Assembly (NCBI GenBank): GCA_963783885.1 | Contig: CAWAPJ010000001.1 | Coordinates: forward strand, 1 to 64,000 | Reading direction: 5' to 3' | Length of the DNA stretch: 64,000 bases | Source: Waddliaceae bacterium | GTDB lineage: Bacteria; Chlamydiota; Chlamydiia; Chlamydiales; SLFE01 | Shown: in pieces, positions 2,138-9,204 of the stretch | Position numbering within the stretch: position 1 is the first letter of the stretch | How the letters are laid out: each line of letters starts with the position of its first letter | Translations under genes and position numbers: made by a program | The notes under the pieces: generated by a model | What the model saw: the letters and a program-made list of their open reading frames with translations, nothing else | The model's database searches: none | What the model was told of the DNA's origin: nothing

Positions 2138-4965
2138 ATGGATAAAGAAATTTCTAAAAATTACAACGCTGAAGAAACCGATAAGAAATGGTGGGATTTT
2201 TGGGAAAAAAATCATTTTTTTACCGCCAATCCACACTCGGATAAACCTCCCTACTGCATCGTCATCCCCCCGCCCAATGTGACAGGGGCCCTTCACATGG
2301 GCCACGCTCTTGTCAATACCCTCCAGGATATCATGATCCGCTGGAAAAGGATGTCCGGGTATGAAGCTCTTTGGGTTCCGGGAACCGATCACGCCGGCAT
2401 CTCCACCCAGACAGTCGTAGAGAAGCATTTGATCAAACATGAAGGAAAAAAAAGGACCGATTATTCGCGCGAAGAATTTCTCGAATATGTTTGGCAGTGG
2501 AAAGACGAGTATGAAAAACGGATCATAGGACAGCTGAAAAAACTGGGCTGCTCTTGCGACTGGTCGCGAAAGAGATTCACCATGGATCAAGGCAACAACG
2601 GCTCGGTGCGAAAAGCATTCAAAAAACTCTATGATGACGGCTTGATTTTCCGAGGAGATTATCTGGTCAACTGGGATCCTGTCACAGAGACGGCCCTTGC
2701 CGACGATGAGGTCGAGTATGAGGATCGGCAGTCTTTCCTTTGGACAATCCGCTACCCTCTTAGCGACGGGTCGGGATCCATCTGTATCGCCACAACCCGT
2801 CCCGAAACAATGCTAGGAGATACCGCTGTAGCCGTCGATCCTAAAGACAACCGTTTCCAGTCTCTGATCGGTAAAACGATTACTCTCCCTTTGACTGGCA
2901 GAGAAATCCCCATCATTGAAGACCACAGGGTCGATCCCGAATTTGGAACCGGGTGTGTCAAAATTACCCCCGCCCACGATCCCAACGACTACCAGATCGG
3001 CCTCGATCACGATCTTCCCTTTATTAATATTATGACCCCGGACGGCCGCATCAATGAAAATGGAGGAGAATTTCAGGGTCTTTCTATGGCCGATGCCCGC
3101 CAGGCAGTGGTCGCAAAACTCGAAGAACAAAAATTTCTTGAGAAAATCGACCCCCATACCAACCGCGTAGGGGTTTCCTACCGCTCCAAGGCCACAATCG
3201 AACCCTACATGTCCAAACAATGGTTTGTCCGCATGGATAAATTCGCGGGCAAACTCAAAAAAGCGGTTTATGAAAACAAAGTCCGCATCATTCCCAAAAA
3301 CTGGGAAAATGTCTACTTTCACTGGATCAACAACCTTCGCGACTGGTGCATCAGCCGCCAGCTCTGGTGGGGACACAGAATCCCTATCTGGTACAACCGC
3401 AATAATCCCGACGACATCATCTGCTTCGACGGAGAAGGCGACCCTCCCGAAGTCCAGGCAAATCCCGACGGCTGGATTCAGGATCCTGACGTTTTAGATA
3501 CCTGGTTTTCATCTTCCCTATGGCCTTTTGCGACGCTTGGATGGCCGAACCAAACGGCGGAACTGAAAAAATTTTATCCCAATTCCGTTCTCATTACCGG
3601 GCATGACATCCTCTTTTTCTGGGTCGCCCGCATGATCTTCATGGGAGAATATATCATGGGGGAAGTCCCCTTTCCCGAAACATTTCTCCACGGCTTGATT
3701 TTTGCCAAATCCTACTGGAGAAAAAACCCGGATGGCGGCATTACCTACTTAAGCCCTGAGGAAAGGCGGGAATATGAGCTCGGCAAGCCCCCTCCCAAAG
3801 ATGTCGAGAGCCGTTGGGAAAAGATGTCCAAGTCGAAAGGCAATATCATCGATCCCCTGGAAATCATCGCCGAGTACGGCACAGACGCCATGAGAATGGC
3901 CCTGGCGGCCAGCGCCACTGGGGCAAGAGAAATCGACCTCGACAGAAGAAAGTTCGAAGAATACAAAAATTTCACCAATAAGGTCTGGAATGGCGCCCGC
4001 TTCGTATTTATGAACCTCGGAGGACAAGAATTCGCAGAAGGGTTCAATGAAACCATACTGGCCCTTGAAGACAAATGGATCCTATCCAAACTCAACAACA
4101 TCATTAAACAAGTGGGCAAACACCTCGAAGCCTACGCTTTTGACCAGGCGGCCTCTACTGCTTACGACTTTTTCTGGAAAGAATTCTGCGCCTACTATGT
4201 CGAAATCTCCAAACCAGTCCTTTTTGGTAAAACGGGCACTTCCGAAGAGCGACAAAACAAACAAAAAATACTCGCCATTGTCCTTTGCGCCGCGATCCGC
4301 CTCCTCCACCCCATGACTCCCTTCATTACCGAAGAGCTTTTTTCCCATCTGAAAGAGAGACTCCCCGATTTAAAATTAATCCCTTCTTCCGACCCCTACA
4401 CACAAGAAACCGTCAGAGCCCTGCAAAGCCCCGCTTGCGCCGCTGCCCCCTATCCCCGTGTGATACGGGAAAAGGATTTAAACCCTGAAATCGAAGAAAC
4501 TTTCGATTCGGTTGAAGAAATCATCTATACCATTCGAAATCTTAGAGGAGAAATGAAACTGCCGCCGGCAGCTGCAATCGACGCCTATATCATTGGCTCA
4601 GGGCACAAATTCGATCTTGTTCAAAGCAATCAACAGATGATTGCAGCCCTCGTACGTACAAAATCGATTCAATTCTCCGAAACAGAACCCGATCTCCCCT
4701 TCGCTTCCACAGGAGTGGCAGGATCTCTGAAAGTGATGATTCCCCTTTCCGAAAGAGCTGATCGAGCAGGAAAAAAAAGCGCCTTCAAAAGGAAGAAGAA
4801 AAACTCATCAGTCAAATCGAAAGGCTGCAGGTACAGCTCAGCAACCCGAACTTTACCGAAAAGGCCCCCAGGGAGCTTGTCGACAAGCAGCGGGCCCAGC
4901 TCTCCCAAAATGAATCGGAGCTAAACGGGATCAAGCAAAAGCTTAAGCAAATGCTTTCAAAGTAG
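2138..4965 (+). CDS. valS: Valyl-tRNA synthetase, with two +1 indels near the 3' end (T3 at 4746-4748, A8 at 4771-4778); true stop TAG 4963-4965
   Basis: PPPNVTGALHMGH (HIGH), ATTRPETMLGD, DWCISRQLWWGH and KMSKS motifs. The intact C-terminal frame is shown by the duplicate at 8408-9138. Confidence 0.97.
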
Positions 4966-4986
4966 AATTAATACATTCTTAACAAA
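4233..4986 (+). repeat. Direct repeat copy 1 (valS 3' end plus ~20 nt downstream)
   Basis: Colinear with 8408-9159 (offset 4175, becoming 4173 after the two indels). Confidence 0.95.
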
Positions 4987-4987
4987 G

Positions 4988-5035
4988 TGCATATACCGGT
5001 GAATCTGATAACCGATTCCGCTGTAATCCGATAAC
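4988..5035 (+). mobile_element. IS21-family-like terminal sequence (remnant)
   Basis: Begins TG (TGCATATACCGG) and carries two subterminal units, AATCTGATAAC and AATCCGATAAC, 23 nt apart. No istA/istB follows. Confidence 0.55.
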
Positions 5036-5195
5036 GTTTTTTCAAAATTGAGAACAAAAAAGCAGAGATTACTCCTCTAAATATGGGACGAGAACTGGAA
5101 CTTATTTCGCAGGAAGAAAAAAAGGGGGGGGCTATTATGGCTTAAATCGAACACGTCAGTACCTCTGACATAGCAGAAAAATTGTTGCATTGATC

Positions 5196-5501
5196 TTATT
5201 TTAAATTCTTTTCAGGAAAAACTAAGCATGAGCTATTAGGTAACTCAATATCATAATCCAAACGTATTGGTTGATCTTGGAGCATCTCAGAATGATAGTG
5301 TGATAATATTTCACCCCCTAAATCGTTAAATATATCTCGAAGGTAGTCATTTAATGGACCATGATGATAATAGTTTAGATGTAAGGTATTTAAATCATCA
5401 CTCCAGTATCCCTCAACTGCCCTAAGGCCTTTAATGTCATAAAATTTGAGCACATGAGTTATGATTTTCAATAAATGTTCTTGCTTATCTTCTAAATCCA
5501 T
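5196..5501 (-). CDS. Putative immunity protein for the upstream toxin, 101 aa
   Basis: Small acidic ORF starting 8 nt after the toxin stop. The pattern LRAV..W....LHL.YY..G....D....L..EI...IRLD....LP....VF resembles, from memory, proteins found after Ntox50 toxins. Confidence 0.7.
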   Translation of the reverse strand: MDLEDKQEHLLKIITHVLKFYDIKGLRAVEGYWSDDLNTLHLNYYHHGPLNDYLRDIFNDLGGEILSHYHSEMLQDQPIRLDYDIELPNSSCLVFPEKNLK

Positions 5502-5509
5502 GGTATTTC

Positions 5510-7417
5510 TTAGTTTTTAGGTCTTACTGGAACAACATGTGCCTTTGCATGTTTGTCATAAAAAATAATACCCATTTGAGTAGGATATTGTTTACCATTT
5601 TCATCAACATAAAAACCAATAATCTTCCCAAAGTCGATTCTTTCTCTAAAATTTGGTTGAAGCGGCTGATTCTTAATGAATTGCCCGGTTCCTTTATATC
5701 TTTCAACTAATACTTCTAATTCCTCACGACCAACCGTAATTATGCTCCTACCAGGGATATAATTATGAGATCCAGGAATATGTTTGTTTTGTTTATCCCA
5801 ATGAATTTTAATCTTTTAAAGAAACTAGCTCGTTGTAAGTTTATTTCAGCAGCTGCAGCTTTGAAAGCTTTTTGACTAGCTTTCGAAGAGGTAGCATAGG
5901 TTTCAAGATTACAGACTTGGTTTGCTCGCTTAAGTTTGGACGCATAATGAGCACCTTTTGTTGTTAATATTCCAGTTACAAAATCTACACCATAAGTGCC
6001 TATAAAGTTTCCTAATGCTTCTCCTTTTTTTTTGTCATCCAATTGGTTAAAATTTAAAAAAAAATCCCTGAGTTTTTCATCGCACTGATCTAAATACTCT
6101 TTATCAATATTCTTTAAGAGCTTATAAATTTCATTTCCAAATTCATAGGAAATAGCAGCCAGTTCGTTAACAGTATCTACAGGGTGTTCTCCAAATGTCC
6201 AAAGAGCAGCTCCCATTCCGTAAATTGTATTGCATAGTGATGGGACAAAATTTTTCAGGCTTTCCTTGCTGCTAGATATAGCTGCTAAGGTAAAAGCATC
6301 AATAAATTCATTTGAGGGTAGAGAACCCGTGGTACATCCTGGAATATGATATTTCATATAGTCTTCTACAGAATGCTCAAAATCGCCTATTTCAAAATAG
6401 GCCACAGCTCGTTGGAAATATGCTTCTTGGTTATATGGTTCGTTTTCAATCAACTTGTTGAGAGCAGCTATAGACTTATCATACATACCAAGTTCGGCAT
6501 AAACTTTTGCTTCTTGCTGGTACATTTCGGAAGTGAGTTCAAAACCGAAGGTTTTTTGCATATCTAATAATATTTCAATATAATCAAATGCCATAGGATA
6601 GTTTCCAGCATGCATGAAAATCAAACCCAATTCATAAACAATTTTTGGATGAGGGTGTTTTTCCAAACAGTTGGAATATAATTCGTAAAATAGGTTTCTA
6701 CGTTCCCTTAGCTTTTTATAGATTTGGTCAAGACAATGAGTTGCGACTTTGGTGTCAGGCTGATATATCTCTATTTTTTGGGCCAAATCCATCATGATAT
6801 TGTGTGTTTGTGAATAGAAAAAAATATGAGCTGCTAACAAATCACCTTGCCCTGGAGAATTATCAAAATAAGGGGAATAGCTCTCAGGTAGATTCCAAAG
6901 TAAGAATGAAAAATCCTGCTGATTAGAATATTTTGCACAATAAGCTAATTGATTTAACTCTGGCCAGTAACAATTGCACCCATAGTTTTCATTCAAATAT
7001 TCTAAGTATAGACGAAAATGAGGAATGGTAAGTCTAGTGCGATTTTGGAAGTAGATTGAGTTTAATCTGAGTGTCTGAGTGCATACTTCCCAGTATTTTG
7101 CTTTTGAAAACTTTTTGCAGTGATTGCAAATATATGTTCTCCATGTAGGGTTATCGTTGTTCAAAATTCCCTCGAGATTACCAAGGGCCGTTAACATATT
7201 GCATTCAGGACAAACAATTATGGAGCATGGTTTTTTTTCCCTCCCATGGAAATAGGGCTCTGTATCGCTCAAACTTATGATAAAGAGAGGCGGTTTGGGG
7301 GTACTCTGCAAGGTGTGACTCGCAAACATTGTCATAATATTTTTCCGTCCAGTCTGCATTCAGAATAGTCAGATGGAGTAGTATCGTTAATAATACCAAA
7401 GATTTACAAAATTTCAT
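5510..7417 (-). CDS. Putative secreted polymorphic toxin: signal peptide, CxxC..CxxC, TPR, linker, Ntox50-like RNase; ~635 aa after repairing two frameshifts
   Basis: SD AAAGGAAG before ATG 7417 (MKFCKSLVLLTILLHLTILNA). One extra base in T8 at 7231-7238 joins to KKPCSIIVCPEC. One missing base near 5814-5817 joins to KIHWDKQNKHIPGSHNYIPGRS...GTG...ERIDFGKIIGFY...GIIFY...HVVPVRPKN, stop 5510-5512. Confidence 0.85.
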
Positions 7418-7597
7418 GTTACTTCCTTTGGACTGCGCCCCAATGTTTGGACAGTAAAACGACGTCAATAACAAAACTTCGGCATCAATTCTCTAATTGA
7501 TTAAAAAGTTTTATTCTCTTCAAACGGAACATAATCGAGCATAAACAATCCCCGTGATTATCAACAACAGAAATTTTGTTCGTGTTTTACTAAGTCG

Positions 7598-8327
7598 TCA
7601 TAATTCAAAATATTTTATATCTGCACTTTCCTCCAGGTATTCGAACAATAACTTATGATCTTCAGGTTTTGGCCAAAGGATATAACGTAATTTATGTTCT
7701 TCAATCATCCGAAAGTATGGAGCTGTCGAACTCAAGCCATCCTCCAAAAGGATATCCTTGAAGTGAGGATGTTCTCTACGAACGTTCTCAAGAAAGCGTT
7801 TACAGGCATTTCTTTCACAGCCATTTTTCTGTTTATTATGCTGGTTTATAATAACCTCTGGACAAAGTGGAATTACGTTCTTCTTATCAGGGTGAACCAC
7901 GCATACTCCAAACATTTGGTGGTAGCATAAGATGGTTCCGTCGTTAGGTCGTTTAGTGCAGAAATGAGGGCAGGAAATCTTGTTAGAGTGAAATGTACCT
8001 ATACTATCTCCTGATTATAAGCACATGTCCATCTATGTATGTGAATTCTTCGAGAACTTTCCCCAATTGAGCTAAGGCAAAAACCCTTTTGAAAGCCGTA
8101 CGTGAAAATTTTGGATTAAAACATTCATTTCTGTCGCATTCGAGCAGAAATGAATGTTTTAATCCAAATACTGCCAATCCAACCATAAGATGGTTGACAA
8201 AGGTATAGTCCCACTCTGGTTAAATTTCCGTGGTTCAGAAATTTTACTGAACTTTTTGTAAATATTACGAATCAGTCCTGGTACGCTGAGGTGTTTTTTT
8301 CAACGACTGTTTGAGAAGAGGTTGCAT
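7598..8327 (-). pseudogene. Degenerate ISNCY-like DDE transposase fragment
   Basis: Multi-frame pieces KKHLSVPGL, MVGLAVFGLK, YHQMFGVCVVHPD..VIPLCPE, CERNACKRFL..RREHPH, EDGL; 3' part missing. Confidence 0.8.
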
Positions 8328-8407
8328 GTGTTGATCCTTTGAACTGTCTAAATGAAGCTCAAAGTTTAAGAAATAAAGATTTTAATTACCTCTGAAAAAT
8401 CGCTCAG

Positions 8408-9138
8408 CGGACACTTCCGAAGAGTGGCAAAACAAACAAAAAATACTCGCCATTGTCCTTTGCGCCGCGATCCGCCTCCTCCACCCCATGACTCCCTTCA
8501 TTACCGAAGAGCTTTTTTCCCATCTGAAAAAAAGTCTCCCCGATTTAAATTACATCCCTTCCGCCGACCCCTACACACAAGAAACCGTCAGAGCCCTGCA
8601 AAGCCCCGCTTGCGCCGCTGTCCCCTATCCCCGTGTGATACGGGAAAAGGATTTAAACCCTGAAATCGAAGAAACTTTCGATTCGGTTGAAGAAATCATC
8701 TATACCATTCGAAATCTTAGAGGAGAAATGAAACTGCCGCCGGCAGCTGCAATCGACGCCTATATCATTGGCTCAGGGCACAAATTCGATCTTGTTCAAA
8801 GCAATCAACAGATGATTGCAGCCCTCGTACGTACAAAATCGATTCAATTCTCCGAAACAGAACCCGATCTCCCCTTCGCTTCCACAGGAGTGGCAGGATC
8901 TCTGAAAGTGATGATTCCCCTTCCGAAAGAGCTGATCGAGCAGGAAAAAAAGCGCCTTCAAAAAGAAGAAGAAAAGCTCATCGGTCAAATCGAACGGCTT
9001 CAGATGCAGCTTGCCAACCCGAATTTTACTGAAAAGGCTCCCAGGGAGCTTGTCGATAAACAGCGGGCCCAGCTCTCCCAAAATGAATCGGAGCTTGTGA
9101 GTATCAAGCAAATGCTTAAGCAAATGCTTTCTAAGTAG
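8408..9138 (+). pseudogene. valS: 5'-truncated duplicate of the valS C-terminal region (direct repeat copy 2, extending to ~9159); frame intact
   Basis: Near-identical to 4233-4965; encodes RLLHPMTPFITEELF...coiled-coil...LANPNFTEKAP...MLSK*. Confidence 0.93.
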
Positions 9139-9204
9139 AATTAATACATTCTTAATAAAAATTTAATAAATAAAATAAACTATTTATTTATAATATTTAA
9201 CATT

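Follow-up and report, generated by a model that had tools for sequence, protein, structure and literature searches.

A probably decayed Ntox50 toxin gene beside an intact immunity-type gene in a Waddliaceae genome, and its place in a polymorphic toxin family of environmental Chlamydiota

Polymorphic toxins have been studied in free-living and mucosal bacteria. Here we describe a toxin locus in an intracellular chlamydia, on the minus strand of positions 1–64,000 of contig CAWAPJ010000001.1 from Waddliaceae bacterium (GCA_963783885.1; this whole 64,000-nucleotide stretch is called the window below), in which a gene for a carrier protein with a C-terminal Ntox50 tail is followed by a small immunity-type gene. 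The tail has solved relatives in two described toxin–immunity pairs. MafB2-CT of the mucosal bacterium Neisseria meningitidis B16B6 is an RNase for which His335, His402 and His409 are required for toxicity; its immunity gene lies directly downstream, the immunity protein MafI2 blocks the substrate surface in a 1:1 complex (8HHJ), and the genes are carried on genomic islands with spare cassettes (PMC9970974). YxiD-CTD of Bacillus subtilis 6633 (9V8I), a Pfam Ntox50 domain on an LXG carrier with type VII export, is a metal-dependent tRNase that is inactive when His447, His521, His528, Lys446 or Lys524 is mutated to Ala (the His521 mutant lost both tRNase activity and toxicity), and its partner YxxD has an Sm-like fold (PMC12700104).

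A broader precedent is the Sec/type II secretion system (T2SS) class of Zhang et al. (2012, PMC3482391), characterised by a signal peptide only, optional TPRs, an exchangeable C-terminal toxin and a downstream immunity gene. The Ntox50 and Ntox35 rows of that work already name chlamydiae, and the Ntox50 row itself names no immunity family. In its treatment of intracellular bacteria, Waddlia and others are credited with hardly any immunity proteins, and such bacteria are said to have toxins unaccompanied by immunity genes and to wage no conflict with their own kind. Contrary to that statement, each common toxin type of the family described here has its own family of downstream genes. The window locus is, in our judgement, likely to be a decayed representative of a polymorphic toxin family that is Chlamydiota-wide; its immunity gene is still whole.

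The toxin gene was found to be spread over three open segments of the minus strand. Frame A (7208–7417; 70 amino acids (aa), from ATG 7417 to the stop at 7205–7207) is preceded by a Shine-Dalgarno-like AGGAAG at 7422–7427, 4 nt upstream of the start codon, and encodes a signal-peptide-like leader followed by the start of a Cys-rich domain. The leader, judged by eye only, has a Lys-rich start, a hydrophobic stretch and LNA/D, a pattern shared with the N-termini of homologs, and residues 31–58 of frame A matched residues 39–66 of the N-terminus of homolog P0007 (E 5e-5). Frame B is an open reading frame (ORF) of 539 aa (7359 to 5740) that aligns to homologs from the PCSIIVCPEC stretch to ...ASFFK, and frame C is open from 5815 to the stop at 5510–5512 (101 aa), being closed by a stop codon immediately upstream of 5815. 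The first-pass annotation had claimed a single gene split by two opposite single-base shifts, and this was borne out: ATG 7417 and stop 5510–5512 share a frame (7417−5510+1 = 1908 nt and 7417−5815 = 1602 nt, both divisible by 3), with two interruptions between them. Because of the homology of frames A and B and the stop before frame C, the first break (A to B) was placed within 7230–7244, an interval that includes an A8 run at 7231–7238, and the second (B to C) at or beside the A4 run at 5814–5817, exactly at the junction between carrier and toxin. A promoter and terminator scan of 4900–7700 gave no signal (11 promoter-like sites vs 10.5 expected; 1 terminator-like site vs 1.9 expected).

The tail (5510–5815; 101 codons plus the stop at 5510–5512) gave a full-length match to the Pfam model of Ntox50, a BECR-fold RNase family (PF15542; E 1.7e-23; 83.6 bits, the cut-off being 22.2; model positions 1–92 of 92), as had been recognised from its motifs; those listed at the time (CPEC...CNHC, the Gly/hydrophobic linker, KQNKHIPG, ERIDFGKIIG, IIFYD and HVVP) were all present. 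An NCBIfam scan of the tail gave no match. Its best solved sequence relative in the PDB was 9v8i_B (YxiD CTD; E 1.5e-10), and 8hhj_B (MafB2 toxin) was also found (E 2.6e-4). Catalytic positions were mapped onto the tail through the PDB sequence alignments to these two toxins. The Lys-His pair is kept as K11 and H12 (YxiD Lys446/His447; MafB2 His335) and is invariant in 15 of 15 chlamydial tips, as we call the C-terminal toxin domains; the His of HVVP (YxiD His528; MafB2 His409, in HxVP) and the Lys of Y-D-K (YxiD Lys524) are kept as well. Four of the five YxiD active-site positions are thus present in the window tail, the exception being residue 85, where a Phe codon (5561–5563) aligns with catalytic His521 of YxiD and His402 of MafB2. 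An earlier remark that IFY stands here in place of the usual IHY was therefore well founded, as the position is the catalytic His in both solved relatives. Ten of the 15 chlamydial tips (alignment A6) have His in the residue-85 column, two have Arg, two Val and one Phe. Since the second catalytic His is replaced by Phe, we treat the tail as Ntox50-derived and not as an active Ntox50 RNase.

The downstream gene (5196–5501, minus strand; 101 aa) is intact, starts 8 nt past the toxin stop and shows no signal peptide by eye. It matched a profile of 11 other ORFs located downstream of chlamydial Ntox50 tips (hhalign 96.5%, E 9.6e-10, residues 6–99 of 101), had no Pfam or NCBIfam match, and belongs to a family of which 0 of 12 members matched Pfam at E < 0.01. 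The family profile (A4) matched the MafB2 immunity protein 8hhj_A weakly, end to end (E 0.0027, 20.8 bits; profile positions 8–95 of 97 against chain residues 9–101 of 108), and did not match YxxD. In three runs, a predicted complex of the tail and this ORF reached an ipSAE (an interface score from predicted aligned errors) of 0.85, whereas the best of 3 controls scored 0.01. Both chains are related to the solved complex 8HHJ, so the score may reflect the model's memory of MafB2/MafI2; it signifies likeness, not binding, which tells against leaning on it. The ipSAE mark that we applied is reached by 58 of 80 solved complexes and by 2 of 110 mismatched pairs; the partner had a pLDDT (predicted local distance difference test score) of at least 89, and contacts agreed by at least 91% between runs. 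The modelled interface involves toxin residues 8, 11, 85 and 95–101, the active-site region, so that the chlamydial pair as predicted would resemble MafB2/MafI2 in forming a 1:1 complex with a blocked substrate surface, as it does in having the immunity gene directly downstream. These results support the view that ORF 5196–5501 is of the cognate immunity type for the Ntox50 tip, in agreement with its initial description as immunity-like. The corresponding ORFs at loci L008, L009, L011 and L012 are far longer (219–283 aa vs the usual ~100 aa) and may be fused or duplicated; that of L012 resembles a tandem repeat of the domain.

The carrier body encoded in frame B (5815–7233; 473 aa) contains a zinc-ribbon-like CxxC...CxxC pair (~7102–7227), helical/TPR repeats (~6352–6816), and a family-specific post-TPR module with a Gly-rich hydrophobic linker (5815–6336) that is the hallmark of the carrier family. 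The carrier is 40–43% identical to the full-length proteins P0003, P0004 (a Waddlia chondrophila hypothetical protein according to its source) and P0006, all of which run uninterrupted from the carrier into Ntox50. Pfam TPR_1 and TPR_2 each matched two stretches of the carrier, and the Pfam lists for the window pieces (E ≤ 1) and for P0003, P0005, P0006 and P0009 (E ≤ 0.1) contained TPR-type families and Ntox50 only. None of the signature domains MafB-N, LXG, Rhs, CdiA, PAAR/VgrG and MuF was found in these scans of the window pieces and four homologs. The carrier was thus rightly judged not to be of the CdiA, Rhs, MafB, LXG or MuF kind, and it differs from MafB2, which has MafB-N (DUF1020), and from the LXG carrier of YxiD. 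NCBIfam gave generic TPR models only, all below their cut-offs.

Neither the Cys-rich domain nor the post-TPR module is covered by a Pfam or NCBIfam model, which sets the carrier apart from the Sec/T2SS class. The accompanying claim that this is an unrecognised delivery class held in part: no known carrier domain is present, whereas a Sec/T2SS class with optional TPRs, and chlamydial Ntox50 and Ntox35, had been catalogued (PMC3482391). In an AlphaFold model of the frame-B body (pLDDT 81.8; predicted template-modelling score (pTM) 0.79), four short strands surround the CxxC...CxxC pair and the rest of the body is all-helical. At least half of the residues are Cys in 11 alignment columns, 10 of which are N-terminal (eight of these in the frame-B piece), a pattern consistent with a zinc-binding or extracytoplasmic domain. 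A Foldseek search of the carrier against the PDB returned TPR proteins only (8 matches, E ≤ 0.001). When the family-specific module was modelled alone the fold was poor (pLDDT 68.9, pTM 0.46), and the VIA-align matches of this model among 48,161 chains did not exceed Z 5.3 and were generic long helices only.

Homologs of the carrier are widespread among chlamydiae. A word-indexed search returned 12 proteins, and a search of species-representative genomes returned 19 loci. Locus titles were chlamydial in 11 cases, Verrucomicrobia-type in 2 and chlamydial at phylum to order level in 4 (17 together), and the other three read 'uncultured bacterium'. With a profile of the family-specific module alone (A8, without TPR or toxin columns), 166 of the 400 genomes sampled from the phylum had matches at E ≤ 1e-8, as had 103 of 212 genera, with up to 7 copies per genome; the 29 genomes of family f4, 1.0–1.2 Mb in size, gave none. 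Among 1.84 billion cluster representatives the same profile matched 722 proteins at E ≤ 0.001, 580 at E ≤ 1e-10 and 333 at E ≤ 1e-30. Behind the shared linker, these carriers bear Ntox50, type B (~130 aa), HNH (Pfam LHH, E 6.6e-8; Col-Pyo_DNase, 28.9 bits), Ntox35-like (21.2 bits, under the cut-off of 23.6) or type E tips, B and E being unnamed types, and the repertoire of the whole family amounts to five to seven types at the least. The best 150 cluster representatives comprised 79 Ntox50-like, 24 Ntox35-like, 23 type B, 4 type E, 1 HNH and 2 other tips, with 17 sequences too short to assign.

The gene that follows the carrier varies with the tip. Ntox50 tips were followed by a member of the immA family, which the window ORF fits, in 14 of 15 cases, type B tips by immB in 16 of 16 and type E tips by immE in 3 of 3, with no cross hits, in counts that include the profile seeds (nine immA, six immB and three immE). 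Whether homologs differ in their C-terminal toxin domain, and whether a small gene of its own comes after each, had been proposed beforehand as a check on the first-pass annotation, and both proved to be so. A point to be set against this result is that 20 of the loci (L028–L047) were chosen since their match stopped at the junction, so that non-Ntox50 tips are over-represented among them; the 19-locus set and the best 150 representatives give less selected tip counts. Orphan tip fragments or extra immunity genes were present at L017, L028, L035, L042 and L043, and none in the window. Because one carrier bears varied tips, and each common tip type has its own small-gene family, the carrier family is a polymorphic toxin system of environmental Chlamydiota, with a putative Sec signal. 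Like the MafB2/MafI2 genes, those of the chlamydial family occur on genomic islands with spare cassettes.

Tip types B and E and their partners are candidate new toxin and immunity families, as judged from sequence comparison. Pfam gave no match for type B tips, type E tips or the partner at L018, and the only NCBIfam match of a type B partner was SCO4402_fam at 34.7 bits, below the cut-off of 50. Type B tips (L018, L028, L033–L036 and L038–L047) share a conserved C-terminal ...AHIP(L) stretch, and type E tips (L031, L032 and L037) are ~85 aa long with two His-rich motifs. An ESM Atlas search with a type B tip led to unnamed clusters (0.94) and to MafB-bearing (0.89) and Ntox37 (0.86) leads that were too weak to use. 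A literature search, which subscription journals and supplements lay outside, found no published account of the carrier family as a family. Parts of the system were partly catalogued in 2012, and Additional file 1 of that work may include some of the proteins (PMC3482391); as a family, a Chlamydiota-specific carrier with its own tip and immunity sets, it is apparently undescribed.

The window gene had at first been described as a hidden toxin gene. Our analysis does not support a working gene that needs read-through and nothing more: the window copy is most likely a dead pseudogene, since the breaks recur in short-read contigs of a public run and a catalytic His is lost. Contigs of four public runs (X1–X4) were compared with window positions 5000–8350. 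Record 18 of X3 (5752–5902, 151 nt) spans the second break and record 20 of X3 (7159–7421, 263 nt) spans the first, both with 0 differences and 0 gaps relative to the window. Because of these gap-free matches both breaks are probably real, the evidence being thin. The reading of the locus as decayed rests further on the loss of the catalytic His, on the dead insertion sequence (IS) transposase adjacent to the gene, and on the frequency with which relatives are broken: 4 of 19 loci (L005, L008, L011 and L021) are split or cut, and further matches contain stop codons. A second Ntox50 gene of the same genome, on contig 20 with its tip at L002:637-954, has His at the critical position, is unbroken across linker and tip and has its own downstream ORF; contig 20 begins inside this gene, which is therefore cut by the contig end with its N-terminus unassembled. 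A fragment downstream of this second pair (L002:1741-2022) presumably resembles the C-terminus of an IS91-type transposase.

Several observations weigh against the decay reading. The breaks are covered by X3 alone, at a depth of about 2, with no X1, X2 or X4 contig across either, and we cannot tell whether X3 is independent of the data behind the window assembly. The contig of X1, the best-covering run, has one extra A after the intergenic homopolymer position 5116, and homopolymer lengths therefore vary between data sets. Apparently whole tips have Arg (L007 and L010; also P0006) or Val (L006 and L019) at the position of the catalytic His; such tips might be inactive, or else an altered active site might be at work in part of the chlamydial branch, and the change of His to Phe does not by itself prove inactivity.

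Two accounts would leave the organism with a toxin. If both breaks were homopolymer errors of sequencing or assembly, the gene would be intact and working; both are indeed situated within or next to A runs, the assembly is a draft in 46 contigs with a completeness of 88.9%, the first valS copy described below also has two single-base extras (one in an A run), and X1 differs from the window at the 5116 homopolymer. We nevertheless regard this as distinctly improbable, as the short X3 contigs are identical to the window at both sites, an A4 run is an improbable place for an error, several relatives are broken at other places, and the lost catalytic His, the neighbouring dead transposase and the low guanine-plus-cytosine (GC) content indicate real decay. 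Alternatively, the broken gene might still be expressed through transcriptional slippage, ribosomal frameshifting at A runs or phase variation. Polymerase slippage at tracts of the A8 type rescues frameshifted genes in endosymbionts; the first break contains such a slippage-prone tract, and the Shine-Dalgarno-like site and start codon are intact. Such expression would require two independent corrections, one of them at a mere A4, and would still yield a product that lacks one catalytic His; the homologs have no conserved slippery site here and their own breaks lie elsewhere, so that we consider this account very improbable. For the same reason, the absence from homologs of a conserved break or slippery site at these places, a programmed frameshift was rejected. 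Decay thus remains our preferred reading of the toxin gene, whose product would no longer be made, owing to the two breaks, and would have Phe for one of three catalytic histidines, while the immunity gene alone is intact. The immunity protein may still guard against the toxins of relatives, including that of the unbroken contig-20 Ntox50 paralog.

As for how such a system would work, homology indicates an ancestral gene for a protein with a Sec-type leader, a Cys-rich zinc-ribbon-like domain, TPR-like repeats, a helical module with a Gly-rich linker and an Ntox50 tip, followed by a gene for a small cytoplasmic protein of the family that accompanies Ntox50 tips. The toxin would be exported by Sec and may cross the outer membrane via a type II system encoded by the genome, in which a secretin gene and a T2SS-F gene occur together on contig 25. 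The carrier could then present its exchangeable nuclease tip to neighbouring chlamydiae; the tip would cleave RNA, probably tRNA, in cells that have no matching immunity protein, and the immunity protein would cover the active-site cleft. Such delivery may serve against co-infecting bacteria or kin, as suggested in the first-pass annotation.

The family's toxins might instead be aimed at the eukaryotic host, cleaving amoeba or animal RNA, with the downstream protein shielding the producer in the manner of barstar and barnase. Chlamydiae live within host cells, export by Sec and a type II system into the vacuole is known for Chlamydia, and RNase tips would cleave host tRNA too. Zhang et al. (2012, PMC3482391) argued for mostly host-directed toxins in intracellular bacteria, Waddlia among them. 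It also counts against the mechanism outlined above that export, the type II route, entry into bacteria and the RNA target are inferred, and that a producer needs its immunity gene merely for self-protection before export. Against a host target stand the swapping of tips, of which there are no fewer than five types, each paired strictly with its downstream gene, the orphan tip fragments and surplus immunity genes, and the immunity gene kept beside a dead toxin in the window. In the polymorphic toxin systems described so far, such features mark conflict between bacteria, and a host-directed effector would not require arrays of this kind; we favour conflict between bacteria and consider a host target rather unlikely. 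A wider proposal can be made only tentatively: that the carrier with its Cys-rich domain, TPRs and Gly-rich linker is a Chlamydiota-specific delivery class of its own, which would move nuclease tips between chlamydiae within a shared vacuole or host in warfare against kin and competitors, that immunity genes beside dead toxins, such as 5196–5501, would be its record, and that types B and E may represent new toxin folds with new immunity families.

If the toxins do act between chlamydiae, the ecology and genome evolution of the group gain a testable force, namely competition in amoebae or shared vacuoles, and such competition could bear on the exclusion of other intracellular bacteria by symbionts. 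The family offers two toxin domains and three candidate immunity families that have no Pfam model, and the window locus provides a case of an immunity gene outlasting its toxin.

The pair lies in a 3.4-kb insert (4987–8407) containing the immunity gene, the toxin gene and a transposase remnant, between two plus-strand copies of the 3' end of valS, the gene for valyl-tRNA synthetase (ValRS). GC content is 0.34–0.375 in the insert and 0.46–0.515 in valS. The left copy (4233–4986) is joined to the valS body and has extra bases at 4746 and 4771, both absent from the right copy and from G379, a same-genus genome (90% complete); as a result of these two bases, the last ~70 codons of the valS body copy, which specify the C-terminal coiled coil of an essential gene, are out of frame as assembled. 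The right copy (8408–9159), a fragment, has an intact frame with an ATG of its own at 8488, and the native downstream flank comes after it. In their middle parts the two copies do not differ; past the stop codon, the sequence agrees with G379 in the right copy and leads into the insert in the left one. In G379, valS is intact, and two IS elements separate it from the downstream gene that it shares with the window, the insert being absent; no carrier module was found anywhere in that genome. The transposase fragments (7598–8190, minus strand; ORFs 7598–7915 and 8004–8186) resemble, by eye, parts of the 435-aa transposase L053:1132-2439, and the remnant DNA matches three places in G379 at 67–69% identity. 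The toxin pair probably arrived on a low-GC insert with an IS element, beside the duplicated valS 3' end; foreign DNA that integrated through recombination in the 3' end of valS, with subsequent gene conversion, would account for the arrangement.

The stretch downstream of valS seems to be prone to insertions. At the G379 site (L054, G379:C4:910800-918400) there are genes for two distinct IS transposases, and the next gene is partially duplicated; the window itself contains another DDE transposase ORF at 173–1012. A general role of valS as an insertion site was rejected, since among 39 toxin loci valS lies beside the toxin pair elsewhere only in L012. This locus (L012:5572-11056) comes from a distant metagenome-assembled genome (ValRS identity 64%) and shares with the window the convergent order of toxin, immunity gene and opposite-strand valS 3' end.

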